DNA of 30,403 nt from an uncultured virus (IMG/VR IMGVR_UViG_3300014073_000001) (taxonomy: Duplodnaviria > Heunggongvirae > Uroviricota > Caudoviricetes): the IMG/VR virus record IMGVR_UViG_3300014073_000001. One strand, written 5' to 3'. Shown here piece by piece: positions 1,827 to 27,066 of this stretch (positions are counted from its first letter, which is position 1; each line of letters opens with the position of its first letter). The translations under genes were made by a program, and so were the position numbers. Under the pieces are notes generated by a model that was not told the origin of the DNA, did not search any database, and worked only from the letters and a program-made list of their open reading frames with translations.

Positions 1827-4721
1827 TCAAGTGGCAACAGGGTCGCCTTTTGCATAAATCTTAAATACTTTTCTTTGGATGGACTGTACATCGATCTCAG
1901 ATTCAATCCGCACATAGAACGGCTTTACTTCGCTATTTGCCATTGTATTGGTCAACGAAATAGTTTCTACGGGAACAAACGGGCTGAGAGTTTCGCTCAG
2001 CATCAGTTTAACTTTCTCTTCTTGGGTTTCGTTATCAGCCCAAATTGAGACATCTTCCAAAGTAAGTCCGGTGCGGTTCTCCAGGAATACGATGCGCGGT
2101 TCGGCGAACAAGCCGCCGATAACGGTGCCGAAGTCAAGCTGCTGGAGAATATCGCCTTTGTCGGTACTATAGTAGAAGTTGTTCTCGTCTTTGAACAAGA
2201 GGCTTCTGTATCCACCAAGGACATGGAATTTAATCTCGGCTTTCGTGTTGAGTTCATCAACTGCCTCGATTGTGATTTCGTTAGGTAATCCATAGAGTAG
2301 GTCTTTTGAATCCCAGCTGAAGTCAAATGTGAACCCGGCCTCTTTCCAGTCGGTGTAGCCATCCAGAGGAGTAATCTGATTGCTGTTAACCAGTATACGG
2401 AAGCGTACTTTCTTGCTAAGCGAATGATTGATCGTAGCATTCATATAGAACTCGTTCTGGAAATTCAGTTCAATTTGCGGTTCACCGGTAATAAGAATAA
2501 TCTGAAATTCCTTCTCATAGATTACGCCGCGGCTGTCGCGGGTAATAACCTTGATAGTGTTATCGCCGGCACGGAAACTAGTAAAGTCATATTCATGGTA
2601 GAACTGATAACCGTTTTTCCGTTTGAACCAGCCAGGCTGCTCAGGGGTAATTTGCCTCCATCCAATTTCATTGAACTGCTTGGTAACGACTTGGTATTCA
2701 ACCGCGTCATTTTCGGCATCGAATAATGTCCCGATGAGAGCAATTCTGTCGGTAAGAACTTGAACCTGGCCATCCTGTACAAGTGGCCCCTGGTTGGGCA
2801 TGAACTCGATATCGAGTTTGCCGATCTTGTGAGTGGAATTAAAAGATTCGTTCCGTATACCGACGGCATATTTAATTTTGGAACGGTAATCAGACGGCAA
2901 GCTGTCCCAAATTTTTTCGTCAGCCATTTGGTTAATCGTGATACCGTTATCACTGATGCTGCGAAGTTCGGTTTCTACCCAACTTCTTGTATCCGGACTA
3001 TAAGTAAGCCATTTACCACCGTTGTTAACAGACATGAGGTAACGTGATTTGCCTTCACCCTTGGTGTCAACTTTAATAGCCCGGTCCGTTTTCGTGATGG
3101 TTTTATAAATTTCGTACACAGCATTACCTTCAATATTGTTGCGTTCTAATTTGCGGTCAGTCGTTACGATAATGTCCTTCGTATTAGCAACAGTATTGCG
3201 TCCGGTTAGTTTTTCAGGATCAACAGGCTTTTCAGCTTCGCTTACGATATTGATGTCAACACCGGTAACGGTTGCTTCATCGGAAGAATCAATCTCGATG
3301 CTTCTACCAGTATCAAGTAGAGAAGTAAAAGTGCTTGCAGACTCACTCGATTTGCCAACAAAGTTGACTGTGATGCCACGCTCAAGAATAGTTGACTCTT
3401 GCTCGTCGTCAACGATAATCAGAGTGGACTTACCATTGATCTGGTTAGGTCTACCAATCAAAGCTTTCGGATCGACGGTTGCCTCCGTTTGAGACACGAT
3501 ATCTACGCCCATCGCATCATTATCTTCCCTGTCTTCTTGCTCGATGTTAAGCCCCCTGTTAACAGGGTTGAAGTCTCCATCAAGTGGAAGCGGATCTTCA
3601 ACAAACGATTGAACGTATAAGGATTTGTTAGTGCGAAGTACGTCAAATATTAGCTGAGTCTTAATTTTAGTGTTAGCACCTTGCGCTCCACTTTCAACTA
3701 CGTTAACAATATCGACAGAGCCATAGACTTCAAGTTCTTTGAACTTCGCAATAGGGATACCTTCTAAATCTTTCATGCCCTGTTCCCAGAATGTGGCACG
3801 ATCGGGCCTGGCGTCACTAACATATTGCCATGATTCGGTGGTAGTATTATATATATAATACTGACCGTTCAGGACAATCATTGCGCGGCCAAGATCTTCA
3901 AACCAAAGCTTAGGTGCATTGTTGTCAAGAAATTTCCAAACAGGTACATTGTTGCGGTATCTATACAGCCAAGCATCAAACTTCAGCTTGTTCTGGGTCT
4001 CTGTAGTGGTAAGGCCGATTGCAAGATCATTCTTTTGCATCGTCTTCTCTTTGTCATAGAAACAGCCCTGAACATCGATGTTTTCACAATAACCATAGAT
4101 CGGGCCTGCGGTTAACAAGTTGCCGCCAGTGATGTTACCGTTATAGAAACAGTTGTAAACCTTATTCTTATTGGTAGCAAATGGCGACGTAACGTACCCG
4201 GCGATGCCGCCAGCGAAGTCCTCCTCGATCACGATATTCGTCGAAGAACGGCTATCTTGAATAAGCGTCACATTTAGCTGATTGATATCGCCGACTAAAC
4301 CGCCTGCTATATTTTTGGCCTTTATAGAACCGGTCGAATAGCAGCGAGCGATACTTGCGCTATTGGCAAAAAAACGTCCAGCTATTGCCCCTACCTTCTC
4401 ATTGCCAGTTATATCAACATTGACCACTCCAAGATCTTTAACGGCACCACTTAAGTTCGCGATTAGCCCTAGAATTGATATGGTAGGACTGTTAATCTTA
4501 AGATATTTGATGACATAACCGTCGCCATCTAATTGCCCCGTAAGATTCGGAATGGGTGTCCACCCCGCACTGTTGTACGGGGCGACATCCAAGTTAATAT
4601 TATTCTTCAATTTAAAGTAGCCGGCTGGCTTAGTACGGATAGCGTCTAAGTCGGCAGCGTCTTCAATGATATAAGGATCGTTACTGACGCCAGTGCCGCC
4701 GCCAAAAGTTCCGTCTGCCAT
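1827..4721 (-). CDS. 964-aa multidomain hub protein: N-terminal GLUG-motif beta-helix, linker repeats, two Ig-like domains, C-terminal LDFGT...N domain
   Basis: Starts MADGTFGGGTGVSNDPYIIEDAADL and has VGAIAG/AGGLVG/AGGIAG motifs. The C-terminal ~400 aa align by eye with the 666-aa protein (PNQGP vs PNSGP; YYSTDKGDILQQLDFGT vs FYSTDLGEIIQKLDFGT; AKGDPV vs AKADPA). GAGGAGG RBS. Confidence 0.85.
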   Translation of the reverse strand: MADGTFGGGTGVSNDPYIIEDAADLDAIRTKPAGYFKLKNNINLDVAPYNSAGWTPIPNLTGQLDGDGYVIKYLKINSPTISILGLIANLSGAVKDLGVVNVDITGNEKVGAIAGRFFANSASIARCYSTGSIKAKNIAGGLVGDINQLNVTLIQDSRSSTNIVIEEDFAGGIAGYVTSPFATNKNKVYNCFYNGNITGGNLLTAGPIYGYCENIDVQGCFYDKEKTMQKNDLAIGLTTTETQNKLKFDAWLYRYRNNVPVWKFLDNNAPKLWFEDLGRAMIVLNGQYYIYNTTTESWQYVSDARPDRATFWEQGMKDLEGIPIAKFKELEVYGSVDIVNVVESGAQGANTKIKTQLIFDVLRTNKSLYVQSFVEDPLPLDGDFNPVNRGLNIEQEDREDNDAMGVDIVSQTEATVDPKALIGRPNQINGKSTLIIVDDEQESTILERGITVNFVGKSSESASTFTSLLDTGRSIEIDSSDEATVTGVDINIVSEAEKPVDPEKLTGRNTVANTKDIIVTTDRKLERNNIEGNAVYEIYKTITKTDRAIKVDTKGEGKSRYLMSVNNGGKWLTYSPDTRSWVETELRSISDNGITINQMADEKIWDSLPSDYRSKIKYAVGIRNESFNSTHKIGKLDIEFMPNQGPLVQDGQVQVLTDRIALIGTLFDAENDAVEYQVVTKQFNEIGWRQITPEQPGWFKRKNGYQFYHEYDFTSFRAGDNTIKVITRDSRGVIYEKEFQIILITGEPQIELNFQNEFYMNATINHSLSKKVRFRILVNSNQITPLDGYTDWKEAGFTFDFSWDSKDLLYGLPNEITIEAVDELNTKAEIKFHVLGGYRSLLFKDENNFYYSTDKGDILQQLDFGTVIGGLFAEPRIVFLENRTGLTLEDVSIWADNETQEEKVKLMLSETLSPFVPVETISLTNTMANSEVKPFYVRIESEIDVQSIQRKVFKIYAKGDPVAT

Positions 4722-4742: not shown

Positions 4743-5894
4743 TTATTGAAGAATACGAATTCTGTTGATGGAATCTCCGAACTGACTAAAATCAATCGTG
4801 GTTTTTAGCACTACCGCATCAGAAATCTGAGCATCGACAACCATATCTTTCTTAACGGAGGTACGGTTGATAACGAATTTGTCAGTGCTCGCTACCAACT
4901 CGAACTTGCCGAACTCGCGCAACTCATTCCACTTGAAACGAGGGATCATAGCGAGCTCATTATCAGAGATGCCGTGCTGGTCAAATACATTGGCACTCGG
5001 AAAGGTCACGGAAACGTCGATCCACGTTTGATTGCGGTATGTTTTATAGCCGTTGTTGACGAAGATGAAATACTTTGTCGCTTCGGTATAAAACAAACGA
5101 GGATATACGCCGGTACGAAGTACCCATAGTTTCTTTTCGAAGTTGTAGTATTGGTCGGTCCATTTGTCGAAAGTGGCCGGAGTTTCCATTTCGGCTTTCG
5201 TCTTAGAGCCGACACCGGTTAACGGATTTTTGGTGCTATCGAAATAGCTCTCGGTTACGGTGCCAGCAGTTACCGTGCCTACGACACCGCTACGGCCAGT
5301 ACCGCCACCGGTGATAGTTCCGCCGTAGAAGCAGTTTTTAATCACGCCATACGTGTTATTCAGTACGGAAGTGATGCCGCCGATGTTATTACCGGTACAG
5401 GTGATATCGACTTCGGAATAGCTGTTGATGATTCTGCCGCCATCCATACGGCCTGCAAGACCACCGATATCACCAGTCGCAAGAATCTTGCCGACCGCAA
5501 GGCAGTTTTCAATCAAGCATTCCTGAGTAGTCATCTGTCCAACGATACCTGCACAATAGGAAGTGCCGCCAACGATGTTGAAGCTGAATACGCCCAGGTT
5601 AGTAATGGCGCCACCGCGAGTGCTAGTGAACAAAGCCTGGTTATTCGCAATCCGGTTGATGAACAAGTTACGTACTACATAGCCATTACCGTCAAAATTA
5701 CCGCGGAACGCAGGGATCGGAGTCCAACCAGTGCCGTCGCTAGACTCGTTGCAGACTTGGGTCAAGTCGACATTTTTAATCAATTTGTAAGAGGCGGTGA
5801 GATTGTTTCGGACAAAGTTAAGATCATATCCGTCTTCGATTAGATACGGATTGTTGATAGAGCCGTCTCCGCCTGCGAATTTACCGTTAGCCAT
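4743..5894 (-). CDS. GLUG-motif beta-helix adhesin-like protein, 383 aa (tandem paralog)
   Basis: Starts MANGKFAGGDGSINNPYLIEDGYDL, has FRGNFDGNGY and IGGLAG/IGGITS motifs, and the shared C-terminal module. Its start overlaps the upstream stop (TAATG). Confidence 0.85.
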   Translation of the reverse strand: MANGKFAGGDGSINNPYLIEDGYDLNFVRNNLTASYKLIKNVDLTQVCNESSDGTGWTPIPAFRGNFDGNGYVVRNLFINRIANNQALFTSTRGGAITNLGVFSFNIVGGTSYCAGIVGQMTTQECLIENCLAVGKILATGDIGGLAGRMDGGRIINSYSEVDITCTGNNIGGITSVLNNTYGVIKNCFYGGTITGGGTGRSGVVGTVTAGTVTESYFDSTKNPLTGVGSKTKAEMETPATFDKWTDQYYNFEKKLWVLRTGVYPRLFYTEATKYFIFVNNGYKTYRNQTWIDVSVTFPSANVFDQHGISDNELAMIPRFKWNELREFGKFELVASTDKFVINRTSVKKDMVVDAQISDAVVLKTTIDFSQFGDSINRIRILQ

Positions 5895-7174
5895 TAAGCA
5901 ACAACTCCTTTATTCATGGTTACAATGTTATTACCAAAATCAGTGAACTTGATTTCTTTACGGAAGTAGTTTTTGTCTGCTGCCGAATTTGCTCCATCTA
6001 ATGTCATCGGAAAACTGACTGATTGCTGTGTCGTACCATTGGAAAGCTCAACTATGTTGATGATGTCAACCTTGGTGTTCGTTGCTCTGAGCACGTCCCA
6101 GGCGGTGTACGGAATATGAGAAATGCTCTTCATTCCGTTGTTAACAGCTTGAGCTCTTGTCGGCATGGTCGTATATTTAATTACCCACGATCCATTCTCA
6201 TAAACACAGTATCCGTCGTTAGTTCGTACAAAATATCTGTCTAAAAAGAATTGGCGGGGTAAAGGATAACGGGTTCCTTCTTCGTAATCCCAAATCTGAG
6301 AACCGTCACTCGTTAGGCGCAGATCCATATCGGAGAACCGGGTTTTAGTCATATTGTCTGTAGAGATGCCGGTAGTCCCAGGAGTGGCTGCCGTTAGCCA
6401 GCGAGTATTATCATAAAACAGATTGGAATATCCAGCGGCAAAGTATGCTACTCCACTAAAGGTGCCGAAAGACGTGGGATTTAATGAAGCATTTGCCAGG
6501 CCGTTGATCATATTGCTGAATGAGCAGGCGCTTATGACATAATTAAGGATAAAGTTCTTCGTTGCGCTGTTATATATAGTCCCGGCCACGGCGCCAAAAG
6601 CGGAGCTTACAGCAGAAGGCTGAAGGAAGACATCGATAAAGATGTCCTGGCCAAGACTAAATAACATTGCTTGAGAAGCAGCATCCCAGGTCATGTATCC
6701 GAAAATTCCGCCGCCATTTCCCTCTGCGGTAACTTTGCCGGAAAAATAGCAACGATCTACAATGTAATATGCAGGTGCTCCGCCAGCAGTTTGGTATATT
6801 ACAAGACCTCCGGCAAGAACCCCAACATTGGTTTTGCCAACGATATTGGCATTTTCGATGCAGAGATTACTTATCCGCTGCGGGTAATTGTCGATAACTT
6901 TAATATTCTCAAACAAACCGACACCGCTTTTGTCTGGGCGATTAATGAAGAGGTTGTAGATCTTTTTACCATTGCCGTCCAGTGTGCCAGCGAAGTCTTT
7001 TATGGGATTCCAACCCTTTCCAGTATTGTACGGTGCAGTACCAAGGTTGATACTGTATGCTAACTTAAAGTTAGAGTTAGGGAAATATCGAATTGCAAAA
7101 AGGTCTTCTGCATCTTCGATTAAGTACGGATTGTCTGGAATACCAGTGCCGCCGCCGAATTTTCCTTGTGCCAC
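5894..7174 (-). CDS. GLUG-motif beta-helix adhesin-like protein, 426 aa (tandem paralog)
   Basis: GTG start after AGGTGG. FGGGTGIPDNPYLIEDAEDL, LDGNGKKIYNLFINRP, VGVLAG, C-terminal FRKEIKF. Confidence 0.85.
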   Translation of the reverse strand: MAQGKFGGGTGIPDNPYLIEDAEDLFAIRYFPNSNFKLAYSINLGTAPYNTGKGWNPIKDFAGTLDGNGKKIYNLFINRPDKSGVGLFENIKVIDNYPQRISNLCIENANIVGKTNVGVLAGGLVIYQTAGGAPAYYIVDRCYFSGKVTAEGNGGGIFGYMTWDAASQAMLFSLGQDIFIDVFLQPSAVSSAFGAVAGTIYNSATKNFILNYVISACSFSNMINGLANASLNPTSFGTFSGVAYFAAGYSNLFYDNTRWLTAATPGTTGISTDNMTKTRFSDMDLRLTSDGSQIWDYEEGTRYPLPRQFFLDRYFVRTNDGYCVYENGSWVIKYTTMPTRAQAVNNGMKSISHIPYTAWDVLRATNTKVDIINIVELSNGTTQQSVSFPMTLDGANSAADKNYFRKEIKFTDFGNNIVTMNKGVVA

Positions 7175-7194
7175 GTTAGACCACCTGTCCTTTA

Positions 7195-8484
7195 CTAAAT
7201 ATTGATGATAGATAAGTTACCGCCCGATGCGGAGAACACGATCTCTTTGCGGAAGATTGTTTTGCTACTATTACTATTAGCAGCATCTTTGGCAAAATTA
7301 AACGGTGTTCCAAAAATACTAAATGTATCCGCCTTATCAATAATATTTACGATATACGGTTCATTATGGTTCTTGAAGAAATCCCATGCAGTTTGCGGGA
7401 TTTGTTCAAGATGCCGCATCCCTTTTTCAATTGCTTGCTGACGGCTAGGAATCGTATCGTTAACCATAGTCCAGCCAGTGGACGCCTTATACGTGTAGTG
7501 GCCGCCATCGCCACAGATATACAGATAGTCAGGTGATTGATGATATAGCTCAGGAGATTTGTCCGTAGGGAAATACCATTCAGGAGCATCATTGAATATT
7601 GCAGTCGGCAAAACAGCAGGAAACCTCGAAAGATCTTTCATTTCTTCAGAAGTTAAGCCAACTACGGAATTGGCATTAACGGCTACATTAGAAATAGTCC
7701 AAAGTGTTTTATCATATCGACAGCTATTTGCATACAAATTTTGCCCCTGGCGATGAAAGCATATCGGACCAACATTTGTCGGCGAAGCTACAATAGATGT
7801 ATCAATTTTGCCTTTACCAATACAGTTCGATAAAATGAAGATATTGTATTGGGCTGCCCAATAATCTTGCACATTTCCAAACATTTGGCCGTACATCGAT
7901 CCGCCCGTTAATGGGACGATTGTCACGTCTGCAACACAATCTCCGGCTACAAATGTCGTATAAGTATAGTTGGTGGCACCCCAGTAGTATTGTCCGCAAA
8001 AACCGCCTACGACAGATCGTCCACTCACTTTGCCCTGCACTGAACAACGAAGGAAGACGGCGTAGTCTGCGGAACTGGGATCACCGCGTAATTGACCGAT
8101 AGAATATGCGCCAAGTAATGCACCGACATAATCACGTCCGGTAACATCAACATTTTCTAGGCATAAATCATAGATTCTAACCTTTGTCATTTGGTCAAAA
8201 CTTGTCATATTGAAAGTCCTGAATATGCCGACATAATCTTCATCCGGACGGTTGATGTAAAGATTGTAAATCTTTTTACCGTTGCCATTAAAATTGCCGG
8301 CAAAGTTATCGATCGGTACCCAGCCTTTGTTCGCATTGTATGGCGCCACACCGAGATTGATATTCGAAACAAGTTTGTAATAAGCTGTTAAGTTGTTTCG
8401 AACCTGATGCAAGTCAGCTGCATCTTCTATGAGGAAAGGGGAGATAGCAGTGCCTGCCCCGCCCCCGAATTGACCTCCAGCCAT
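7195..8484 (-). CDS. GLUG-motif beta-helix adhesin-like protein, 429 aa (tandem paralog)
   Basis: FGGGAGTAISPFLIEDAADL, FNGNGKKIYNLYINRP, VGALLG/VGGFCG, C-terminal FRKEIVF. GAGGTG RBS. Confidence 0.85.
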   Translation of the reverse strand: MAGGQFGGGAGTAISPFLIEDAADLHQVRNNLTAYYKLVSNINLGVAPYNANKGWVPIDNFAGNFNGNGKKIYNLYINRPDEDYVGIFRTFNMTSFDQMTKVRIYDLCLENVDVTGRDYVGALLGAYSIGQLRGDPSSADYAVFLRCSVQGKVSGRSVVGGFCGQYYWGATNYTYTTFVAGDCVADVTIVPLTGGSMYGQMFGNVQDYWAAQYNIFILSNCIGKGKIDTSIVASPTNVGPICFHRQGQNLYANSCRYDKTLWTISNVAVNANSVVGLTSEEMKDLSRFPAVLPTAIFNDAPEWYFPTDKSPELYHQSPDYLYICGDGGHYTYKASTGWTMVNDTIPSRQQAIEKGMRHLEQIPQTAWDFFKNHNEPYIVNIIDKADTFSIFGTPFNFAKDAANSNSSKTIFRKEIVFSASGGNLSIINI

Positions 8485-8508
8485 AAATGACTCACCTCTT
8501 TCTTGTTA

Positions 8509-9837
8509 TTAAGGCACGATGCTGATGATATCATCGTTGAAACTTTCAAAGTTGATTTCTTTCTTGTAGCAAAGCATACTTTCATCATTTTGGGCGGTTA
8601 GCGGCAAAATTGCTGCAATCGAATTCAGCGATAGTCTTTCGGTTGGTTCCACGAAATTAACAATATCTACCTGTCCGTATGCGGCCCTTAATTGATTCCA
8701 ACCTTGAGTATCGATGTGATAAAGCGTCGGCATGCCTAAAGATAGAATTGTCGGCGTATCCTGAAGAACGTCGAATTGTTTCATCCATTTCTTTTGATCA
8801 GCATCGTATGTTAAATAGTCTTTGCCTGCCCGGACAAAGTAGCATTCCTGATTCGTGAACCAGAAAGTTGGATAGTGCCCTTCCCTGAAACGGTATAATG
8901 TTTTGCCGTATGGAGTAATTAGGTCTTTGAATGTACTGTACAAAGAAAACGCTTTGAGATTGGCTGTTGTAACTGCCGTTACTCCTGCATTGGCGAGGTT
9001 GCCGCCAAACAGTGTAGAATCATAAAAGCAGTTGGTGTTAAAGGATGCTGGTGCTACAGGATTACTGGGATGCATACCAATATGCGACCTTGCAATTTGA
9101 TTGGCATCGGTCGTAATGAATGTACATAATGAAATTGAGTTAGCTACGCCACCAGCATAGTTGTATACGTAATTGCCGATATTGTAATTATAGTGGTATG
9201 TCGCCGCACCATAACCGACTATGCCGCCCATAATTCTCTCAGATGCTGTATCTGGCGCTACGCAGTTGATCTCGCACATAGATATCGCATCAATTATAAA
9301 GTTGTTCCAGTCTGCGCCCCAGTATACATTACCGATACCACCTGGGAAATAAGCCAGACCTACGATCCCACCTAAGCGGCTTTGACCGATGATTTTACCG
9401 GTTACATATACTCTGGTTAATATGTTGGCAGGGGGAATATAATTTGTGTTGATTGTCCATGCTACTGTTCCAACCAGCCCGCCGACGTTTTGTTTCCCGG
9501 TTACATTGACATCCTCCAGAGCCACATCGTAAATGATTGGATCTGTCCATGCTACTGGCAATGAAATTACACCAAATAAACCAACTGAGTCAATATCTGA
9601 TCTGTTGATAAATAAGTTTATAATTTTCTTGCCGTTGCCGTTGAACCTGCCGAGAAAGTTGTTGATCGGCAACCAGCCTGAGCCGATATTATATGGAGGC
9701 ACACCCAAGTTGATATTGTTGATCAACTTGTAGTTGGCAGTAAGGTTCTTTCTGATGGCGTCGAGGTCGGCCGCATCTTCGATCAAATATGGGGTAGCAG
9801 CTGTTCCGTTGCCGCCTGCAAACATGCCATAAGCCAT
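8509..9837 (-). CDS. GLUG-motif beta-helix adhesin-like protein, 442 aa (tandem paralog)
   Basis: FAGGNGTAATPYLIEDAADL, VGGLVG/LGGIVG/MGGIVG, C-terminal YKKEINF. TAATG overlap with the upstream gene. Confidence 0.85.
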   Translation of the reverse strand: MAYGMFAGGNGTAATPYLIEDAADLDAIRKNLTANYKLINNINLGVPPYNIGSGWLPINNFLGRFNGNGKKIINLFINRSDIDSVGLFGVISLPVAWTDPIIYDVALEDVNVTGKQNVGGLVGTVAWTINTNYIPPANILTRVYVTGKIIGQSRLGGIVGLAYFPGGIGNVYWGADWNNFIIDAISMCEINCVAPDTASERIMGGIVGYGAATYHYNYNIGNYVYNYAGGVANSISLCTFITTDANQIARSHIGMHPSNPVAPASFNTNCFYDSTLFGGNLANAGVTAVTTANLKAFSLYSTFKDLITPYGKTLYRFREGHYPTFWFTNQECYFVRAGKDYLTYDADQKKWMKQFDVLQDTPTILSLGMPTLYHIDTQGWNQLRAAYGQVDIVNFVEPTERLSLNSIAAILPLTAQNDESMLCYKKEINFESFNDDIISIVP

Positions 9838-11138
9838 TATTCATTCACCGCCTTATCTGCCATAAATATTCCATGATCGAAATCATCAAGATGGATTTCT
9901 TTTCTCCAGACTTGTTTGTTGGAGTAATCGTGAGCGGCGTCACGGTCAAATGACACATTGTTGTCTTTGAACGTTAACCCACCAGATTTGTCTACGATGT
10001 CAATGATTTCGATATTCGCATGACCGAGCGATTGCAGCATATTCCACGCTTTGCGATCAATATCCGACAAAGATTTCATGCCGTACTGAAGAGCCTCTTG
10101 GTAGGTAGGAATTCGGTCGTATTTTTCTATCCACTGCTTATTGTCAGCATCATAGATGTAATATTTACCGTCCGTCTTGATGAACAGGTTGTTGAGTTCT
10201 AAGAACCACAAGCGTGGGAATCTTTCGAACCCAAAGACCCATGTGCTTCCACCGGTAGAGATTTTTTTCAGCTCCAGATCGGGGAACTCTTCTTTGAGGA
10301 CCATCTTATCGGACGTTTTAGCAACATGACCAGTAGTCTGTTTACCGTTCCATATGGTGCTGTCATAAATAGAAGTTTCCAGAGTGGGGTTGACTACCGT
10401 CACATTGGTAGGCGGATAAGCAGACCAAAGATTTGGGGCATTGCCGCCAGAGTATTGATAGTTGCCACGGGCGATACAATCCTTAAATCGAGGGATATTC
10501 GCGCTAACCCCGTTTATGTTGCCGAACATCAGCCCTGCGTTAGATTGATCTGTCGGAACGATAAGTTGAACATCTATTAAGCAGTCTTCCATTAGACGCC
10601 AGTTATAGGCATTGTTGCCATAAACATAAAGTTGGCCGATCATTCCGCCGAAATACTGTTGCCCTGAAACTGTCCCGCTAACATGGATCTTTTCAAGAAC
10701 CAATGCTGAGCTGTCAGTAATATGGACATCGTTTTGTTTTCTGGCATATACATAGCCAGCCAAGATGCCAACGTAGTTTCTGCCTACAATCTTGGCGTTC
10801 TCAATACTGATATTACATATACGACCAGTGTAGTTTTGCCCAAGAGAGCCGTAGAAGTCAAGGCTTACTTTTGAGAATAGGCCTACGTAGTCGGTATCCG
10901 GCATCGTGATCTTAAGGTTGGAAATCTTTTTGCAGTTACCATCAAGGGCGCCTGCAAATGTGCCAGGAATAGGAATCCATCCAAGCTTGTCGAATGGAGA
11001 GACATCCAAGTTTATGTTATTGGCCAGCTTATAATATTTAGCGAGGTTAAAACGAATTGCGTATAAATCGTAAGCATCCTCGATCATATACGGATCATTT
11101 AATACGCCAGTGCCGCCGCCGAAAAATCCGTTTGCCAT
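9837..11138 (-). CDS. GLUG-motif beta-helix adhesin-like protein, 433 aa (tandem paralog)
   Basis: FGGGTGVLNDPYMIEDAYDL, VGILAG/FGGMIG, C-terminal WRKEIHL. AGGAGG RBS. Confidence 0.85.
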   Translation of the reverse strand: MANGFFGGGTGVLNDPYMIEDAYDLYAIRFNLAKYYKLANNINLDVSPFDKLGWIPIPGTFAGALDGNCKKISNLKITMPDTDYVGLFSKVSLDFYGSLGQNYTGRICNISIENAKIVGRNYVGILAGYVYARKQNDVHITDSSALVLEKIHVSGTVSGQQYFGGMIGQLYVYGNNAYNWRLMEDCLIDVQLIVPTDQSNAGLMFGNINGVSANIPRFKDCIARGNYQYSGGNAPNLWSAYPPTNVTVVNPTLETSIYDSTIWNGKQTTGHVAKTSDKMVLKEEFPDLELKKISTGGSTWVFGFERFPRLWFLELNNLFIKTDGKYYIYDADNKQWIEKYDRIPTYQEALQYGMKSLSDIDRKAWNMLQSLGHANIEIIDIVDKSGGLTFKDNNVSFDRDAAHDYSNKQVWRKEIHLDDFDHGIFMADKAVNE

Positions 11139-11848: not shown

Positions 11849-12502
11849 CTATTTTATAAGCCAGTTAAGTTGGCTTGTCTTGTCTTTGGCCAAGAAACCA
11901 TCGATGGATTCGATTTCTTCTCGGTTCCTGATAAAGATGATTCGGCCGTCAAGATCTCTATCAGTCATGATGTTAACAGAGATGTACGGAGCCTTGCTAA
12001 GTGGCAAAGACACAATTGGTTTAAAGGTGAAGTTAAAACCATCAATCGTGAACTGCGTCTTGTAACCGTAGTAGTAACCTACGATACGGGAATCCAGGCT
12101 GCCCGTTCTTGACGTTGAGGCTTTCTTACTTCCGACTCCGACCGGTACATCTGCTATAGCCTTTTTGAACGTGATGATATCACGAGTCATATTGCTGCCG
12201 TTACCTGTTAGACTATAACGCTTGCCATCTTTACTTTCGAAAGCTATATCAATACGCCGTCCGGTAATATTAAATGTGCCGCCAATGCATTCAAACCATA
12301 ATTTCCGGTTATTTCCAATAAGACCGAAACGGATTAATTTATCCTTATCGATATCCTGGAGGTTATTCTCCGTTCCCGTTGCTAAGTCGAATTCAGTAAG
12401 TCCGCCTGAAAAATACTCAGCCATCCATACGAACGGCTGAGTCGGGATTGGAGATACTGCACTAACTTCTGAGAATGTCAACATATTCATATCTCCCCTC
12501 AT
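11849..12502 (-). CDS. ~217-aa conserved hypothetical protein, paralog of 26438..27034 (true start may be 12490 or 12484)
   Basis: QPFVWMAEY...TEFD...EN...IDK...FGLIG matches QPFIWFADY...TEFE...EN...IDK...FGILG. DIITFK matches DVINFK, and YGYK matches FGYK. Confidence 0.8.
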   Translation of the reverse strand: MRGDMNMLTFSEVSAVSPIPTQPFVWMAEYFSGGLTEFDLATGTENNLQDIDKDKLIRFGLIGNNRKLWFECIGGTFNITGRRIDIAFESKDGKRYSLTGNGSNMTRDIITFKKAIADVPVGVGSKKASTSRTGSLDSRIVGYYYGYKTQFTIDGFNFTFKPIVSLPLSKAPYISVNIMTDRDLDGRIIFIRNREEIESIDGFLAKDKTSQLNWLIK

Positions 12503-12531: not shown

Positions 12532-12987
12532 TTAGGTATAGTAGTAAACCACACGGGTCTTGAACTGACGCAAGCCTGCAGGCACGTTCAGCGGTGGATG
12601 TGCATACAGCGTAGCACTGGCATAGTTCTCGATAGCGGCCAGGTCGCCAACATTCGAGGCACCTTTGATAATGCCAGGATCGCAGTTACGAGCTTGGATA
12701 GTGTACATTGCATCGCCACCAACTTGGCTGAACACAGTTTCGTCAGCCGAATTGCAGCGAACGTACACCCACTTATCCATTACAACGTCCAGGGTATCAC
12801 CTACGTTGTCAGTAGTAGTGATCTGAGTGTCCTGCATATCGGATAGGTCAGAAGCACCATTATGATTATTCCAGATCAGAATGGTCTTTTCGGTCGAAGG
12901 ATGGCCGGCATTTACCTTGCCCATTTGCCACTTAGTAACCTCAGTAATTCCATCAATTTCTGTCCATTTTACTACGGGTGCTGCCAT
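12532..12987 (-). CDS. 151-aa hypothetical beta-sandwich protein; candidate major filament subunit
   Basis: AGGAG RBS, no signal peptide. WQMGKVNAGHPSTEKTILIWNN resembles LDFGTLIAGQISVPKEVYVVN. Ends in an aromatic beta strand (FKTRVVYYYT). The CDS is solid; the function is inference. Confidence 0.75.
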   Translation of the reverse strand: MAAPVVKWTEIDGITEVTKWQMGKVNAGHPSTEKTILIWNNHNGASDLSDMQDTQITTTDNVGDTLDVVMDKWVYVRCNSADETVFSQVGGDAMYTIQARNCDPGIIKGASNVGDLAAIENYASATLYAHPPLNVPAGLRQFKTRVVYYYT

Positions 12988-13004: not shown

Positions 13005-13466
13005 CTATATAGCTATTGTTATTTGGATTGTAAGCTCACGGATTCGAAGGTCATCGATCGGTGTACCGATCGGTCCGGTTTTCAGGAAGCTAACCCTGAA
13101 TAGATCATTAGCATCGACTGCATTGGTTGAGTAGTTGTAAGCGTAATCTTGCTTTTTGAAGTTGGCAGGGATCTTGAGTTTTTGAGTACCGAAAATACTT
13201 TCCCAAGTTTCCAGGCCAGCTTCAAACTCAACCTCGGATATCTTTTCTATATCGATTACCGTGTCTTCCACGCCGGATACAGAACAGTACGCATCGACGT
13301 TCATGATGTACCCCTTAAAGGGGAATTTACACAGAGGGCCAAGTACACCGTTTTGGACTAGCGGAAATATAAAGGTCATGATCTTCTGTGTACGTTCATT
13401 AAGTCGAAATGCGGCTTGTATGCTATCTTGGTTGAGTTGGACAACATCCACTAAATGCTTTGTCAC
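13005..13466 (-). CDS. 153-aa hypothetical beta-rich protein
   Basis: GTG start after AGGTAGGTG, fills the gap between neighbours on the same strand, ends in the strand LTIQITIAI. Confidence 0.75.
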   Translation of the reverse strand: MTKHLVDVVQLNQDSIQAAFRLNERTQKIMTFIFPLVQNGVLGPLCKFPFKGYIMNVDAYCSVSGVEDTVIDIEKISEVEFEAGLETWESIFGTQKLKIPANFKKQDYAYNYSTNAVDANDLFRVSFLKTGPIGTPIDDLRIRELTIQITIAI

Positions 13467-17820: not shown

Positions 17821-19635
17821 TTACATTATAAAGGCGTAAGATGATCCGTAAGTTACAACTACTGACCCTTCGATATCTTCTCCCCATTTGGGTCTAGAAT
17901 GTAATGTGCCAACAAGATTATCATAGGCGTGTCGCTTAACAATCAAACTTCCGTTAATGTTTTTGCTATCATGCTGCCGTATGATAATATGTCCCTGAAT
18001 ATCTGCTTCCTTATCAATTCTAGGAATAACTACAAATCCATCAAGCGTTATTTTATCGACCTGTTTTACTACTACTGATCCGCTTAAATCGAGTTCATTT
18101 TCTTTAGAATTCAATACTAATGAGCCTTGAAGATCGATAAAATCTGTTGCACGTACCTTTATCGCCCCCGTGAGTTCATTACGTTTTTCTATTCCCACTA
18201 AAGTAAATAAACCATTTAAAGAAGTTTGATTTTTTTGTTTGGAGATTATAGAGCCGACAAAATCACTGTATTTTGCATTTTGCGTAATTAATATGGAACC
18301 ATCTAAAATTCGTTCGTCTCCTTGCCTTACTACTATTGAGCCCGGTAGAATAGCGTATTTTAATTTTGAAGTGATTGACATAGAGCCATTTAAAACTATA
18401 TTATCTTGTTGTTTGATTACGATTGAACCAGGGAAATTAGTGTCTTTTAATTTTGAAGCAATCAACATGGAACCATTTATAGCTGAACCATCTTCTTGCT
18501 TTACTACAATATAGCCTGAAAAATCATTTTGGTTCTGGATATTAACCATAGTTATTGATCCATTAATATATGATTCAGCTATTTGTTTGCTAACAATAGA
18601 TCCAGAAAGCTCTGTTCTGACAGTTTTTTTTGTGATTATTAATGAACCAACAAATTCGTTCATATTTTTCTTACATACAGTTAAATTACCAACGATTTCT
18701 TTGGTATTCTGTTTTTTATTTATAAGAAGGAAACCCTGTAAATCATCACGGAAAAGGCCATTAGTGATATGAAGACTTCCGGCAAGAATTGCTGTGTTCT
18801 GAAAACGAGGGGTTAAACTGCCGCGCATGTCAAGAACACCCGCACTTGGAGGAAAGTACTGATAAGCATACTCAAGTAGTGGTGCATCATCAGTTTCACG
18901 TGATCCAAATGTAATAGGTATGGTCAAAGTCGTATTTGATACGTCACGAATTGTAAAGCTGATAATTTGGCTTGTTGTTGCATTTTGCTTAAAAAAGTTA
19001 AATAAATTAAACTCGATATAACTTGCACCCAACGGAATATTTGCTGTTGCAATCATTTTAGAAAGTGGCGATTGGTTTACCCAGTTTACGCCGGTCTCCG
19101 ACCAGTCCGATTTGCTGGTAGTGTATAGAGTTAATGTCGTTGCCTTGTTGACCGGACGAACAAGACGCAATCGCAATTTGGCATATTTAAGGTTTTCAAG
19201 ATCAGCTGAATCTATCGCCTGCAAGTTGAAAGCCAATGTCGATCGATATTCTTCGTTCGCTGATATTTTACCAACGGCAAGCTCGCTCCCCAGTCCAAAC
19301 TGTAAATAAGGAGCATTAGATGCTAAGTTTGCATCTTTAATAGGCACTGATTGAACGGTTTTTACAGGCGGTTCCACAACGTTTACACAACCAACCATGC
19401 GGTTATTAGGTCGAACACTGATAGAACCAAATAAATCCTGCATTCCTTTTTGTTTAACCGTTAAGAAGCCATTAATTTCTTCATGATGATTAACATTTTT
19501 ATAATCCAGTGAGCCATTGAGATTTGTGCTGTCTTTTCGCTTTACTACGATAGAACCATGGGCATCTTGTTCTCCGACACCTTTCACAAGAACATTCGCA
19601 GTCATCTGGTTTGTTTGTTGACCAAACACTGTCAT
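17821..19635 (-). CDS. DNRLRE/CBM96-like domain protein with ~29 tandem 14/15-aa beta repeats (~604 aa)
   Basis: DANLAS...G...LAVG...YRSTLAFNL...AKLRL...WSETGVNWVNQ...FGSRE...PLLEYAY (~18858-19365). About 23 C-terminal and 6 N-terminal (L/I/F)xGS(I/L)x(V/I) repeats. Start moved to ATG 19635 because GAGGTG precedes it. Confidence 0.8.
   Translation of the reverse strand: MTVFGQQTNQMTANVLVKGVGEQDAHGSIVVKRKDSTNLNGSLDYKNVNHHEEINGFLTVKQKGMQDLFGSISVRPNNRMVGCVNVVEPPVKTVQSVPIKDANLASNAPYLQFGLGSELAVGKISANEEYRSTLAFNLQAIDSADLENLKYAKLRLRLVRPVNKATTLTLYTTSKSDWSETGVNWVNQSPLSKMIATANIPLGASYIEFNLFNFFKQNATTSQIISFTIRDVSNTTLTIPITFGSRETDDAPLLEYAYQYFPPSAGVLDMRGSLTPRFQNTAILAGSLHITNGLFRDDLQGFLLINKKQNTKEIVGNLTVCKKNMNEFVGSLIITKKTVRTELSGSIVSKQIAESYINGSITMVNIQNQNDFSGYIVVKQEDGSAINGSMLIASKLKDTNFPGSIVIKQQDNIVLNGSMSITSKLKYAILPGSIVVRQGDERILDGSILITQNAKYSDFVGSIISKQKNQTSLNGLFTLVGIEKRNELTGAIKVRATDFIDLQGSLVLNSKENELDLSGSVVVKQVDKITLDGFVVIPRIDKEADIQGHIIIRQHDSKNINGSLIVKRHAYDNLVGTLHSRPKWGEDIEGSVVVTYGSSYAFIM
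17845..18835 (-). repeat. Coding tandem repeat, ~23 units of mostly alternating 14/15 aa (87-nt dyad)
   Basis: For example FSGYIVVKQEDGSAINGSMLIASKLKDTN / FPGSIVIKQQDNIVLNGSMSITSKLKYAI. TTTAATTTTGAAG recurs 87 nt apart near 18360 and 18447. Confidence 0.85.
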
Positions 19636-19730: not shown

Positions 19731-19752
19731 TATTACCTTAAGATTCGTCCTA
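19731..19752 (-). promoter_or_regulatory. Promoter-like motif TAGG-N12-GTAATA upstream of the DNRLRE gene
   Basis: Minus strand TTAATTAGGACGAATCTTAAGGTAATA, 22/27 identical to the copy at 27067-27093. Confidence 0.55.
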
Positions 19753-21510
19753 ATTAATAGAAATGGTGTTGATAAACTTATCAAGCTGAACCTCAGCTAA
19801 ATTCAAAGCTCTCTTTGATGAATTTAACCTTTTTTTGTTACGAGGTTTGGCCATTTCTAAGAAATCGATATTATCTTGTATAAATCCGCCGTCAATGCTT
19901 CTCATAGTTCGTTCTGCACTGGTGCGGAATTGTTGTTCTTTGTACACATGCACAACAGCTTCTCCGAAGTCTCCAGCGGGTGATTCAACCTCAATCTTAA
20001 TAACATTATCCCCAACCGTTAGATTGGGAGTGTCTATAGAAGCTTCGACAAGTCTGATATTTTGAGCCGTATTGAATGGAACTTTTTCAATTCCGTTAAC
20101 TAGTATTCTCCAAGAAACATCGCGTTGTTCAGGCGGTGCCGGATAATCTGCTTGTATAGTTAATTCCTCTATGCTGGCGGCATTAGTCGAAGCTGATTTT
20201 TCTAAATAGAATCCGAAACGCAGTTTTTTAGAATCCCTTATTAAATAATTCCACAGCTCCGATGTAATAGCTGACAATGCAGATGACGAAAGACACTTAG
20301 CAGACACATTAGTCAAATCTCTTGTATCTATAGCTGCTAAGTTTACACCGGTCCAGCTTGCTCCCCCGTCATTACTTACTATTACACCCACCTTGCTGTT
20401 GCCACTTGTAGTGGAGGTTAAAGTGATTGAGTCTAAATTAGATATATCTGATAAGTCTATATCTTGGTTCATAAGCAGTAACTTTGGCTTTGGGACGATT
20501 GTTAATTTAGCTTTTGGAGAAGTTGCTGTCTCATCCGTCCAATACAACAATTCTGGAGAGCCTAATTGAGATAATACCTCGTCGGTTAGTGAAGTTAACG
20601 CCATGGTGCTGGACATAAATTTTTCCTCTGTGACATCTGCAGGGTAAGAGCCTACGTCCTCCCATTTAGATTCAACATACTTTTTAAGCTTGTCATTATC
20701 TCTTATAAGATATCTTCTCTCGGGCCAGGCTCCCCAAGCATATGGGCCTCCATACACTCCAATAGATGATCTACTACTGTCAGGATTTAAAATAGTAGGG
20801 TCTCCAGTTTTATTCCACCCTGTAATGGTAATATTATAGTTACTATCTAGACTTGTAGTATTTATAGAATATGTCGTAGTTGGTATGACAATCTTAGTAT
20901 CCATTTTATCTGTACTTGGAACCGATAAAGACCCATTGTATATGCAGTTAATCATCTTTGCATTCGTAGTCATGTATAATCCATTATCATAAGCGCTACC
21001 AATTCGATGATTTAAACTAACTGAGAAAACACAATTTTTATAAGTAATATTTAAAGTACTAGTACCCCCATTTCTAAATCCAATCCCTACAGCTATTTTT
21101 GTAGAATTTGGATCCATTGTCCAAGTAGGATACTTTAATATACAATTGTAAAATTCTAGAGTTAATATAGTTTTATTTATATAATAATGTGTATTATTGG
21201 GATTACCAGCAAATACAGTATTATAGATACTTAAAATTTTTCCAGCTTGCGGGACTGGAATTGCTAATGTTTGTTTTTTATTTCCTATTATAGCTCTTGC
21301 ATTCACAGCCATATATCCAGCCACATCAGCAGTATTACTTATAAGATAAATACAATCAGTATATGCTGATGCTGTTCCAGCTTTAGATAGAGTTTTATAT
21401 GGTAATTCTATACTGCCATTACCGGTTGTATCGCTTCCATTTATTCCATCGACGTACCATATCTTATTAAAAGACATCGTTGTTTTATTTATTTTAATTG
21501 TCTCAGCCAT
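19750..21510 (-). CDS. 586-aa protein: DUF1565/pectin-lyase-like beta-helix head, connector domain, partial Ig plus shared tail
   Basis: WYVDGINGSDTTGNGSIELPYKTLSKA start motif and DSSRSSIGVYGGPYAW cap. VSNDGGASW...W..L...LRFGFYL connector also seen in the 666- and 964-aa proteins. KEQQFRTSAERTMRSIDGGF tail. Confidence 0.8.
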   Translation of the reverse strand: MAETIKINKTTMSFNKIWYVDGINGSDTTGNGSIELPYKTLSKAGTASAYTDCIYLISNTADVAGYMAVNARAIIGNKKQTLAIPVPQAGKILSIYNTVFAGNPNNTHYYINKTILTLEFYNCILKYPTWTMDPNSTKIAVGIGFRNGGTSTLNITYKNCVFSVSLNHRIGSAYDNGLYMTTNAKMINCIYNGSLSVPSTDKMDTKIVIPTTTYSINTTSLDSNYNITITGWNKTGDPTILNPDSSRSSIGVYGGPYAWGAWPERRYLIRDNDKLKKYVESKWEDVGSYPADVTEEKFMSSTMALTSLTDEVLSQLGSPELLYWTDETATSPKAKLTIVPKPKLLLMNQDIDLSDISNLDSITLTSTTSGNSKVGVIVSNDGGASWTGVNLAAIDTRDLTNVSAKCLSSSALSAITSELWNYLIRDSKKLRFGFYLEKSASTNAASIEELTIQADYPAPPEQRDVSWRILVNGIEKVPFNTAQNIRLVEASIDTPNLTVGDNVIKIEVESPAGDFGEAVVHVYKEQQFRTSAERTMRSIDGGFIQDNIDFLEMAKPRNKKRLNSSKRALNLAEVQLDKFINTISIN

Positions 21511-21514
21511 TATT

Positions 21515-21835
21515 TTAAATCACCTCAACTTTTTCTATAGTTTTTATCATAAATGAGGTAAGCAGCGAGACAAACATTTGCCCAGTCCCGATTTGCCCAA
21601 GATCAGTCATGTCGGCAGTTATTGAAGACTGCATGCAAATCGCACCATTTAATAAGATAGAGCTATCAATTCCGTTAAACTTACTTGCTTCTGTTTCATC
21701 AAAATTAAGCAAAGTCTTTTTTACATTGCTTTGTCCGGCATCATAATCAATATTGGCCTTAATCCCTACCTGGCTATGATTATTATAGACATGAGTAGGA
21801 GTCACTTTAGTAAAGGTTATATTTATTTCAGACAT
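21515..21835 (-). CDS. 106-aa protein, apparently chimeric (first strands of the Ig adaptor plus an unrelated C-terminus)
   Basis: GAGGAG RBS. NITFTKVTPTHVY matches NITIKKVTPTHIY (404 aa) and IKVTPTHVY (363 aa). Ends KTIEKVEVI. Confidence 0.75.
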   Translation of the reverse strand: MSEINITFTKVTPTHVYNNHSQVGIKANIDYDAGQSNVKKTLLNFDETEASKFNGIDSSILLNGAICMQSSITADMTDLGQIGTGQMFVSLLTSFMIKTIEKVEVI

Positions 21836-21867
21836 AATATCATCTCCTCAAACAAAGGAATTAGGTA

Positions 21868-23082
21868 TTATTTAATTTGTATTTTTTTGATATATTTGCT
21901 TAGGACCACTTCAAAATTATTATCAGTAAGATTCGTAGGAATAGTTGATGATAAACTGAGAGCTTTAGCAGAATTATCAAAACCGATGTTTTTTTTATAG
22001 TATCCCCCATCAAAACTTAAAAAAGTTCGGCTCGCAATTGTTCTGCCATTTGCTTCTTTGGTTACAGTAAAGATGCCTGATTGATTGTCATCTGATATGA
22101 TCGTGATCGTATTAGTATCATCATTTAGCTCATCGACGGATATTTCTCGTATAGTTTTTAAACTAAAGTCCGAAAGCAGTATAGAATTAAGCATTGTCTT
22201 GTAGCTATGTGGGATATAACCTCCCGCCCCATCGGGCTGTAATGCTTCAGCCTCAACAGAGATTTTATTTACTTGTCGGGGATATATATGTGTTGGCGTT
22301 ACTTTCTTAATAGTTATATTAGAAAATGGCACTGACAGCGTTTTGCTATTTGATGCTTCTAATGAGCCATCTGAAGCGGTTATCTTTATTGTGTTATTGC
22401 CGCTTTTCAGAGCGTCTCGCGGGATTGAAACAGTTCCTGTGTATGGCGAACTAAAAAAATCACTCCATCCCGAGGCCGGAAAAAATTGTGTTCCGTTGAC
22501 TTGCACCTGATATTTGATCAATGAACTATCAGGATCTATTATTGATATTGACACTATAAATGTGTCCGCATCTGCTTGAGAAATGGAAATATTGCTTATG
22601 TTTGGAGGCATTTGTGCAATACCTTCTTTAACATACCAGTAGCCGTCAGTATGCCTGCCATTTGTCGGGTATGCTCCATCAACTGCCGTAACTACTTGCA
22701 TATAATTACCTTTAGAATAGCTAACAGTAGCGTCAGTCGCTGCATTCCACGCATCGCAAACATTCCCAGAGTTTGAACTCATCCATTTGTATACTAATTT
22801 TATAATTGACTTATATCTTTCTATATAACCATCTTTATAAGCAGGAGACCCAACTCCTATGTAGCATGGGGAGCTACTAGTAGATTGGCTGATAACCCCC
22901 GTATAATAGGTATCGAGTTCATATAAGCCTGTTGATCCATTAAAGGAGTAGGAAGTGCATCCGCGTTCATAAGAAACGCCATATGCACTTCCATTCCAAG
23001 TATACGGTGTTGCGTCCCACTTTTTGGTATATGTTGTGGTGCTGTTACAAGAATACTTGTTGTATGAATAATAAACTGTCAT
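21868..23082 (-). CDS. 404-aa adhesin/fibre-tip-like protein: Tyr/Ser-rich variable head, two Ig-like domains, shared tail
   Basis: YYSYNKY...YSKG...AVDGAYPTNGRHTDGYWYV; paralog of the adjacent gene; AAGGAG RBS. Confidence 0.8.
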   Translation of the reverse strand: MTVYYSYNKYSCNSTTTYTKKWDATPYTWNGSAYGVSYERGCTSYSFNGSTGLYELDTYYTGVISQSTSSSPCYIGVGSPAYKDGYIERYKSIIKLVYKWMSSNSGNVCDAWNAATDATVSYSKGNYMQVVTAVDGAYPTNGRHTDGYWYVKEGIAQMPPNISNISISQADADTFIVSISIIDPDSSLIKYQVQVNGTQFFPASGWSDFFSSPYTGTVSIPRDALKSGNNTIKITASDGSLEASNSKTLSVPFSNITIKKVTPTHIYPRQVNKISVEAEALQPDGAGGYIPHSYKTMLNSILLSDFSLKTIREISVDELNDDTNTITIISDDNQSGIFTVTKEANGRTIASRTFLSFDGGYYKKNIGFDNSAKALSLSSTIPTNLTDNNFEVVLSKYIKKIQIK

Positions 23083-23134
23083 TTGTTCATCTCCTTTAGG
23101 TCATATATGAATGGCATAAATCTGGTTTAGCGAT

Positions 23135-24319
23135 TTAACTGATTCGAATATTGCAAATGAATTTATCCAGATTAACGACAAGCTCTTCGTCTACAATGTC
23201 GTATTTGCTTCGAAATTTGTTTTTTACTTTACTGTCTAAATCATTTGCATAAATATTGTTTTGAATAAAGCCGCCAGAAATTGAGCAAAAGAATCGTTCA
23301 GACGCTATTCTATATAACTCTTCCTTTTTTACGATTATAGATACAGTTTGATTATCATCAGATCTGATTGTTAGTGTATTGTTACCAACATTAAAGTGGC
23401 TATTATTAATTGCTCGGGATGTCTCGGCGCTCATGTCTGACACCATGGTTCCATTAACTTCTATACTAAAACTATGCTCGATTTTTCCGCCGAAACCATC
23501 GTCTTGCAAAGCCTGTACAGAGATTATACAGCTAGTATGTTGTCCGTCATAAAGAACTAATGGAGTTACCTGGCTAATGTTTACATTAGAAAAAGGGATG
23601 TCAATGTGACTTATATAGCTATTCTGATCTTCTGTGTCATATACATCAATTTTTATAGTATTTAAACCTTGTAGCAAACTGTCTCTTTTGACAATATAAG
23701 TAGCGGTATATGGCACCGCAACCAATTCGCTCCATCCTGTAGCGGCTGGATATTGAAATCCATTTAAGTTCATTTTATATTGCACCCAATTGCTATCCCG
23801 ATCAGTAATATTTATAATGACTTTAAATTCATCTTTACTGATTTGGACACAATCAATTGCTGCGATTGGCAGAATGTTTGTAATAGCTCCTCTTACATAC
23901 CAATAACCATCAGTATGTCTTCCGTCATTAGGATACGTTCCATCTTCAGCTACAAGGTTTTCTAGTACCAATGTCCCTTTAGAATAAATTAAATCTGATG
24001 TCGCTCTCATCGCTGAGAAATAGGCAGAAGCAAAAACACCACCATAACCGGTGCTTGTGTATTTTAAAAGATATCGAGTTATGGTATTATTGCTTGAAAC
24101 ATAGTAGTATTTACCAGATTCTATCTTGCCAGCAGATGATTGTACGCCAGCATAGTATTGTGCGCCAGCATTTGCGAATATTCCGGTGGATGCATTTAGG
24201 CTGTAGGACGAATATAGAACATAGTATTGATTGTTTGTAGTGAAATCAGAAAGCGTTTCGAAATCTCCTACTACATATGAAGCGATAGCATTATATTTGC
24301 TATAGTAATATTTGGACAT
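23135..24319 (-). CDS. ~394-aa paralog of the 404-aa protein
   Basis: KYYYSKY...YSKG...AEDGTYPNDGRHTDGYWYV. Start moved to ATG 24319 because GAGGTG precedes it. Confidence 0.8.
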   Translation of the reverse strand: MSKYYYSKYNAIASYVVGDFETLSDFTTNNQYYVLYSSYSLNASTGIFANAGAQYYAGVQSSAGKIESGKYYYVSSNNTITRYLLKYTSTGYGGVFASAYFSAMRATSDLIYSKGTLVLENLVAEDGTYPNDGRHTDGYWYVRGAITNILPIAAIDCVQISKDEFKVIINITDRDSNWVQYKMNLNGFQYPAATGWSELVAVPYTATYIVKRDSLLQGLNTIKIDVYDTEDQNSYISHIDIPFSNVNISQVTPLVLYDGQHTSCIISVQALQDDGFGGKIEHSFSIEVNGTMVSDMSAETSRAINNSHFNVGNNTLTIRSDDNQTVSIIVKKEELYRIASERFFCSISGGFIQNNIYANDLDSKVKNKFRSKYDIVDEELVVNLDKFICNIRIS

Positions 24320-24348
24320 CAATTTCACCTCTTATTTAATGCAACTAT

Positions 24349-26437: not shown

Positions 26438-27034
26438 CTAACAGATAAATAACCATTCAATTTCTTTAGCTTCATTAGGATTTAAAACTAAGTCGAATTC
26501 TTTAATAACCTCACCGTCAACAATAGCCATTAACTTGCCGACAATTTCTTTGTTCGCTACCATTCTGATCATAAAACGCATCGTGTCGTCCAGGGGAAGC
26601 GCAAAGATAATTTTGTTGAAGAACTCATTGTCGCTTATTTTGAAATTGTGCTTATAACCGAATAAAAAACCATCAATGACGCTGTAAGACTGATTGGTAT
26701 TGAGATTATGTTCAACATAAGCAGATTTGAAATTAATAACATCCTGGTAAGGGCTTTCTTGACTTGTTAAATTGATAATCGTGTCATCGTCTTTCCAAAT
26801 CAAGAATTCGACTTTCTTTCCGCAAATATCAAAGATCCCGTTTGAAGCATTTAGACTAAGCTTTGCGCCGCGCCCTAATATGCCGAATTCCTTGATTCGG
26901 GTTTTATCTATATCGTGAAATTTATTCTCTATACCACTATCCTCAAACTCGGTAATCATTTGCTTGTTCCCGTAATCGGCGAACCAAATGAAAGGCTGAT
27001 CCGCACCTCTCGGTGATAAAAGTCTATCAATCAT
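26438..27034 (-). CDS. ~198-aa conserved hypothetical protein, paralog of 11849..12502
   Basis: AGGAGG RBS before ATG 27034. Motifs shared with the 217-aa protein along the whole length, including the terminal WL. Confidence 0.8.
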   Translation of the reverse strand: MIDRLLSPRGADQPFIWFADYGNKQMITEFEDSGIENKFHDIDKTRIKEFGILGRGAKLSLNASNGIFDICGKKVEFLIWKDDDTIINLTSQESPYQDVINFKSAYVEHNLNTNQSYSVIDGFLFGYKHNFKISDNEFFNKIIFALPLDDTMRFMIRMVANKEIVGKLMAIVDGEVIKEFDLVLNPNEAKEIEWLFIC

Positions 27035-27066
27035 ACAAGCTCCTCCTTTTTCAACGATCATTAATT

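Follow-up and report, generated by a model that had tools for sequence, protein, structure and literature searches.

A pilin-like tail-locus protein as a predicted strand acceptor: a possible ruler-templated donor-strand fibre carrying adhesin hubs

What would a stand-alone protein of 151 residues, here called S, build in the tail region of an uncultured virus, when its fold seems to recur at the C-terminal ends of three much larger proteins? A preliminary description of this DNA proposed that S polymerises by itself in the manner of chaperone-usher pilins and that the larger proteins, or hubs, cap the filament. The window, i.e. the whole stretch of 30,403 nucleotides that was analysed, makes up the last 30.4 kb of a virus record that is 154,403 nt long and has a terminal repeat of 47 nt. 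The record encodes tail-type genes (neck, sheath, tube, tape-measure-sized and baseplate) of the 0305phi8-36/MTATph1 type, as well as an integrase, ParA and a Rep3 initiator. The window belongs to a long tail-accessory gene block, which is duplicated and forms two cassettes, each copy consisting of X, S, Y, one or more hubs and a tape protein (T). The parts found in the window are as follows.

1827..4721, minus strand: hub 1, 964 aa, with a C-terminal H domain at ~1827-2204
4743..11138, minus strand: five paralogues (383-442 aa) of the hub 1 N-terminal region with a common C-terminal segment, candidate side adhesins
11849..12502, minus strand: Y, 217 aa (phrog_11178), downstream of S in nearly all loci, a candidate assembly factor
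12532..12987, minus strand: S, 151-aa pilin-like acceptor subunit (predicted 'bead'), phrog_11814
13005..13466, minus strand: X, 153 aa (phrog_11315), upstream of S in most loci, a candidate base anchor
17821..19635, minus strand: tape protein T, 604 aa from its likely start (610 from 19653), phrog_11333
17851..18831, minus strand: C-terminal repeat block of T, candidate donor strands at a spacing of 14-15 aa
24412..26412, minus strand: hub 2, 666 aa, with a SPRY domain and an H domain at ~24412-24771 (the one modelled)
26438..27061, minus strand: second Y paralogue, 207 aa
30104..30403, minus strand: H domain of hub 3 (~997 aa, with an F5/8 domain)

The S reading frame is preceded by a good ribosome-binding site, and the N-terminal region of hub 1 that is common to the five neighbours is of the beta-helix type. 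The last 99 codons of hub 3 lie inside the window and its N-terminal 913 codons at genome 3-2741, across the circular junction, so that hub 3 is a real larger protein; a 997-aa database protein, P0171, has the same C-terminal domain. Six further proteins (window 19750-24328 and 27165-28256, genome 2742-4286) carry pieces of a common C-terminal segment that ends in a beta strand, and are candidates for a second docking family beside the hub-1-like paralogues. Additional S paralogues are encoded at genome 6238-6732 (164 aa, E 1e-52) and 12005-12451 (148 aa, E 4e-12), the latter adjoining baseplate genes.

S and H are very probably remote homologues, as judged mainly from predicted structures. 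The motif starts given for the hubs in the preliminary description (24705, 2138 and 30397) and the coordinates of S are confirmed in the sequence, and the proposed resemblance of S to the C-terminal domain of the three larger proteins holds, since profiles beat reversed controls and the structure matches are reciprocal. With the H profile, 43 of 164 S-family proteins reach P<1e-3, compared with 1/164 reversed and 0/164 shuffled sequences, counts that are not independent because the proteins are mutually related. HHalign, which had been suggested as a check, gave weak support in local mode (a 38-column match at 64% probability and a 108-column match at 45%) and none in global mode (3%). Pairwise BLAST of S against the hubs returned no S-H match (best E 0.27 and 2.4); hubs 1 and 2 have ~250 C-terminal residues in common (E 2e-23). 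The AlphaFold models of S and H, compared as had also been suggested, match each other reciprocally through Foldseek in BFVD: the S model finds five hub-family proteins, which rank 4-12 with E 1e-4 to 1e-2 and TMq 0.51-0.57, and the H model in turn finds the SP-15 orthologue of S as its best non-hub match, ranking directly after the hubs, at E 4e-5 and TMq 0.60. Hence, it is the structure models that make the case for homology, profile support being weak and BLAST blind. All four domains end in a beta strand, as originally described, according to the S and H models and, for hub 3, to homology (E 6e-22 with the H profile). Profile searches gave no support for a 139-aa protein (genome 11013-11432) that looked S-like by eye, nor for X, Y and seven other neighbours as S relatives; only the 148-aa paralogue passed (96.5%). 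Searches for related loci with S alone or with wide alignments returned no loci.

The models of S and H (pLDDT 95.7 and 89) predict six-stranded pilin-like Ig folds that lack strand G, and residues 17-33 of S and 28-40 of H, a region that includes the motif described earlier, form no beta bridge in the monomers. In a VIA-align comparison with 48,161 PDB representatives, S 1-151 aligns with FimA 18-159 (Z 6.2, rmsd 4.0, 115 aligned), PapA 18-163 and CS17 pilin 11-145 of 145; the longest structural alignment to S is that with TLP-1b 15-237 of 237 (Z 7.2, rmsd 3.2, 131 aligned). H aligns with the FimH pilin domain 158-279 (Z 6.5, rmsd 2.9, 94 aligned). Among the PapD-like domains, S aligns with HYDIN 5-96 of 112, MSP 4-96 of 124 and VAP-A 11-102 of 126. 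The scores are middling, with best Z values of 7.8 (S) and 8.6 (H) for PapD-like/ASH/MSP domains and 5.6-7.2 for pilins, so that PapD-like domains score as high as pilins, and no S match exceeds Z 8, a range that VIA-align calls common. The two groups differ in extent: pilins align from the end of the donor strand to their last residue, whereas PapD-like domains align only to residues 92-102, after which strand G follows in PapD-like and ASH domains. The resemblance to PapD/ASH-like folds noted earlier is supported but stops short of strand G, and by these alignment ranges neither S nor H has the complete seven-stranded fold. The analogy with pilins and tip adhesins is likewise supported, as both domains match pilin bodies up to the last pilin residue. 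The last strand of chaperone-usher pilins carries a motif of Gly at -14 and an aromatic residue at -2; among S homologues ending at the family C-terminus, Gly is found at -14 in 131/149 and Tyr or Phe at -2 in 128/149, and H ends in A-x-P-x without the last-strand aromatic. Based on the alignment ranges, the unbridged motif and the Gly/aromatic signature of S, both S and H look like strand acceptors.

S begins directly with its first strand, without a signal peptide, and in the alignments its first residue falls at the point where the donor strand of pilins stops. The alignments start at residue 15 of TLP-1b and residue 41 of TasA, so that a self-inserting N-terminal strand of that kind is not found in S. 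Fewer than five extra N-terminal residues are present in 152 of the 160 scorable S homologues (164 examined), i.e. they have no N-terminal donor strand, which makes pilus-style self-polymerisation of S unlikely. Foldseek against the PDB gave no match for S at E<=0.001, the best rows being FimA and TasA, all weak (E>=0.002). Pfam, a PDB sequence search and the ESM Atlas gave S no named family; with respect to pilins in particular, the S sequence had no Pfam match and no PDB sequence match below E 0.3. No PapD chaperone or usher Pfam family was found among 110 proteins of the record, a set drawn up without 18 ORFs under ~100 aa.

If S and H accept a strand, the repeats of T are a candidate donor. 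T is made up of ~6 repeats, a CBM96 domain, ~24 repeats of 14-15 aa and a conserved C-terminal YxFIM, and its repeat unit follows the pattern hydrophobic-x-G/S-x-hydrophobic-x-hydrophobic. The second tape copy, which was the one modelled with S, has 1014 aa and is encoded just outside the window (genome 120038-123082). Across loci the repeats read hydrophobic-x-small-x-hydrophobic-x-hydrophobic at a spacing of 11-15 aa, with 14-97 chained units per T protein vs a background of 0.34 per 100 aa, the SP-15 count being taken over the first 2140 residues. The repeat just before each CBM96 domain (window ~19375-19410, and homologues) is of a distinct conserved type, N-K/R-M-x-G/A, which could mark hub sites, and in several tapes this type takes turns with the other, at spacings of 12 and 14 aa. 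In SP-15 gp64 (L031:8444-21649), the tape repeats give way at residues ~2130-4100 to acidic repeats of another type, ~19-20 aa long, which may form a second scaffold. The phage G member of the T family, gp367 (phrog_11333), is reported to lie often beside phrog_16766, and the available part of that paper gives it no function (PMC12484599).

In the structure prediction, two copies of S were combined with a 42-aa, three-repeat segment of the 1014-aa tape, the cognate tape by gene order. The complex scored 0.80 and the best of three controls, all unrelated natural proteins rather than scrambled repeats or other amphipathic strands, 0.00; the pass mark is reached by 116/157 solved complexes and 2/215 mismatched pairs, counts that hold only roughly here. 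At least 98% of the contacts recur between runs, the partner pLDDT is at least 72, and in all three runs both grooves took tape, the two S copies being placed on consecutive repeats with one repeat in each open groove. S residues 17-27 and 135-151 contact repeat residues 1-29 (pairs 144-20, 142-22 and 140-24), and the repeat is predicted to run antiparallel to the last strand of S and parallel to the W20-A27 segment, with its small residue beside W20 and F142. The contacting residues are conserved in the family (W20 95/122, G23 108/122, G138 117/122, F142 92/122). The pass may in part reflect likeness to solved pilin complexes, and any amphipathic strand may dock in the open groove of S; the prediction nevertheless supports the binding of tape repeats by S.

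Taken together, we consider a ruler-templated donor-strand fibre carrying adhesin hubs the best reading of the locus, and hold it with moderate confidence. The tape would be an extended chain of donor strands on which S clamps most repeats, many copies in a row, each repeat supplying the strand missing from S. The product would be a thin fibre on the virion, and the repeat number would probably determine how long it is. Since 14 extended residues span ~4.7 nm, each bead would take up ~4.5-5 nm and 30 repeats would give a fibre of ~150 nm. Hubs would plug onto some of the repeats through H, at the tip or as side branches, and their SPRY, F5/8 or beta-helix domains would be exposed to bind the host surface. 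From the strand direction in the complex model, the N-terminus of the tape would be the tip, and the conserved YxFIM end presumably the base. Assembly would take place in the cytoplasm, followed by attachment to the tail.

The main rival holds that the tape alone forms the fibre shaft, as a trimeric beta-helix or solenoid, with S and H acting at low copy as clamps or as a folding aid on a few exposed strands, e.g. at the ends. Phage fibre shafts commonly contain amphipathic repeats whose central residue is small, and many spacings in the tapes are 11-12 aa, below the 13-14 residues covered by one S in the model, and so suit S less well; a single S gene in each cassette is compatible with any copy number. 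However, each repeat holds just one strand, the 14-aa period matches the length of the S groove, the predicted complex fits two S on consecutive repeats, the irregular spacing of 11-15 aa is awkward for a regular solenoid, and the tape segment modelled in a control without S was unstructured (pLDDT 28; a single segment, not a trimer). We regard a self-sufficient shaft as unlikely, though the most serious of the alternatives to the templated fibre.

The gene order S, Y, one to three hubs and then a CBM96 tandem-repeat protein recurs in 10 named phages (G, SP-15, Jenst, SecTim467, Sundance, LIS04, Perkons, LC76P1, EZ-2018a and c-st) and two plasmids. In all 10 phages T is downstream of the last hub according to profile search and locus reading, the module of LIS04 and SecTim467 being placed by tblastn position only. 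Among 50,697 phage records, S is found in 13, H in 15 (the same 13 plus c-st) and T in 12. By gene context the module adjoins baseplate or tail genes, and hub domains are of the SPRY, F5/8 or beta-helix type, those of relatives carrying PF07581 (GLUG). Exceptions are L006, which has S, Y and T with no hub within 10 kb, and L011, in which S stands alone within 10 kb beside a transposase-like gene; L008 and L009 showed no Y, and L004, L005 and L010 end too early.

The distribution of these parts bears on a second rival, in which the grooves of S and H are filled by other strands of the cassette, i.e. Y or the accessory C-terminal segments, to give branched adaptor sockets and no repeating filament. 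At least 10 neighbours have common C-terminal segments, in two families, and Y is downstream of S almost everywhere. Yet the minimal modules of Paenibacillus and Bacillus plasmids, c-st and Jenst consist of S, Y, hub and T without accessory genes, and the tape passes the complex test, and such sockets appear improbable. Least probable of all is self-polymerisation of S, by donor-strand exchange or edge-strand pairing, with hubs capping the tip and the tape as a separate part: the pilin-like fold, the last-strand motif and the weak FimA and TasA rows speak for it, but the missing N-terminal extension, the position of residue 1 and the predicted filling of both grooves by tape repeats argue against it, and with it against this claim of the preliminary description.

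For the templated fibre, particle data come from phage G, whose gp365, encoded inside the module, has been reported in particles (PMC12484599). In the available text of the same paper gp361 and gp366 are unnamed, and its supplements list them only as 'Hypothetical'; the accessible morphology descriptions of Jenst and phage G do not mention a fibre of this kind. A repeat-templated donor-strand phage fibre was likewise not found in the literature searched, which included the accessible parts of PMC11494351, PMC13278184, PMC8570332, PMC4909266 and PMC12484599 and few subscription papers. Phage G gp173 (L021:15148-15690), encoded among neck and sheath genes, is a distant S homologue (E 7e-9; TMq 0.73) and a candidate for a link to the outer tail coil of phage G or to fibre anchoring. 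This coil has a pitch of 21 nm and a diameter of 39 nm, and the text available does not name gp361, gp366 or gp173 (PMC8570332). The module itself was rejected as the coil, because strands of this geometry would be micrometres long and a 580-aa tape falls far short of that. Similar folds occur in BFVD in PBS1 (A0A223LDF8), Acinetobacter phage ME3 (A0A172Q008/7) and Streptomyces phage phiCAM (K4NZI9), and the fibre design may extend beyond Bacillota phages.

The nature of the element that carries the two cassettes is a question in its own right. In the close relatives L033 and L034, a portal, a protease-like gene, a 540-aa gene and the major capsid gene lie between homologues of genome genes 58868-59941 and 58153-58653, which in this record are 214 nt apart (L016:2653-2868). 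The L033/L034 head genes have no tblastn match in the record, and a family search of its 110 proteins gave no terminase, portal or capsid, the terminase Pfam searches being an insensitive test that was blank also in 5 other virus records; 'major head' matches to phrog_9206 proved to be tube genes. The record is thus either a headless plasmid-borne contractile tail, as the absent head genes together with Rep3, ParA and the closed circle would suggest, or a misassembled or deleted phage (CheckV 68%). The element also encodes its own ClpP and ClpX (genome 71959-73853), and a radical SAM/SPASM gene cluster (genome 103603-115506) inside the tail operon adjoins a 225-aa protein with a Cys/His-rich tail end.

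More broadly, we tentatively propose, at a little less than even chances, that Bacillota phages with contractile and non-contractile tails, G and SP-15 included, share a five-gene kit, in which acceptor-only pilin beads sit on one poly-donor-strand chain that fixes the length and offers programmable adhesin-hub sites, and that here the kit arms a headless, plasmid-borne contractile tail. If so, pilus chemistry would be joined to a tape-measure ruler, all subunits borrowing their strand from one repeat chain. Four phage families that lack annotation (phrog_11814, phrog_11178, phrog_11333 and the H domain) would thereby gain a function, and the fibre would account for proteins that carry the labels 'filamentous hemagglutinin', 'halomucin' or 'RCC1' in Bacillus, Paenibacillus and Brevibacillus and provide a natural length-programmable scaffold.

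Compared with known systems, the predicted S-tape fibre would resemble chaperone-usher pili (type 1 Fim, P Pap, CFA/I and CS17) in its six-stranded incomplete Ig subunit and in a donor that runs antiparallel to the last strand, and the hubs, in which putative binding domains precede a pilin-like domain at the C-terminus, resemble chaperone-usher adhesins. Unlike in chaperone-usher pili, S has neither its own donor strand nor a signal peptide, no PapD chaperone or usher was found among the 110 proteins scanned, the predicted donor is a tandem-repeat tape, and the system is phage-encoded. ASH/PapD-like and MSP domains (CEP192, HYDIN, VAP) give the highest Z for both models, but they are complete seven-stranded folds, and the S and H match stops 15-30 residues before the end of single-domain chains. 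One extended chain also sets length or lines up partner copies in phage tail tape-measure proteins, in LC8/Dyn2 on Nup159-type scaffolds and in fibronectin tandem beta-zippers; however, tape-measure proteins lie inside the tube and complete no fold, and the folds of LC8 and of the fibronectin modules are already complete and take up a further strand at an edge. As far as the accessible reports describe, strand complementation also builds the filament in TasA, TLP-1a/b (PMC11494351), archaeal cannulae and Pam pili (PMC13278184). In these secreted fibres the subunit donates its own strand to its neighbour and there is no length ruler, whereas here the predicted donor is one long chain (PMC11494351, PMC13278184). 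Thus, in the donor-strand fibres compared, a subunit lends its own strand to its neighbour and length is unfixed, and the predicted S-tape fibre would differ in both respects.
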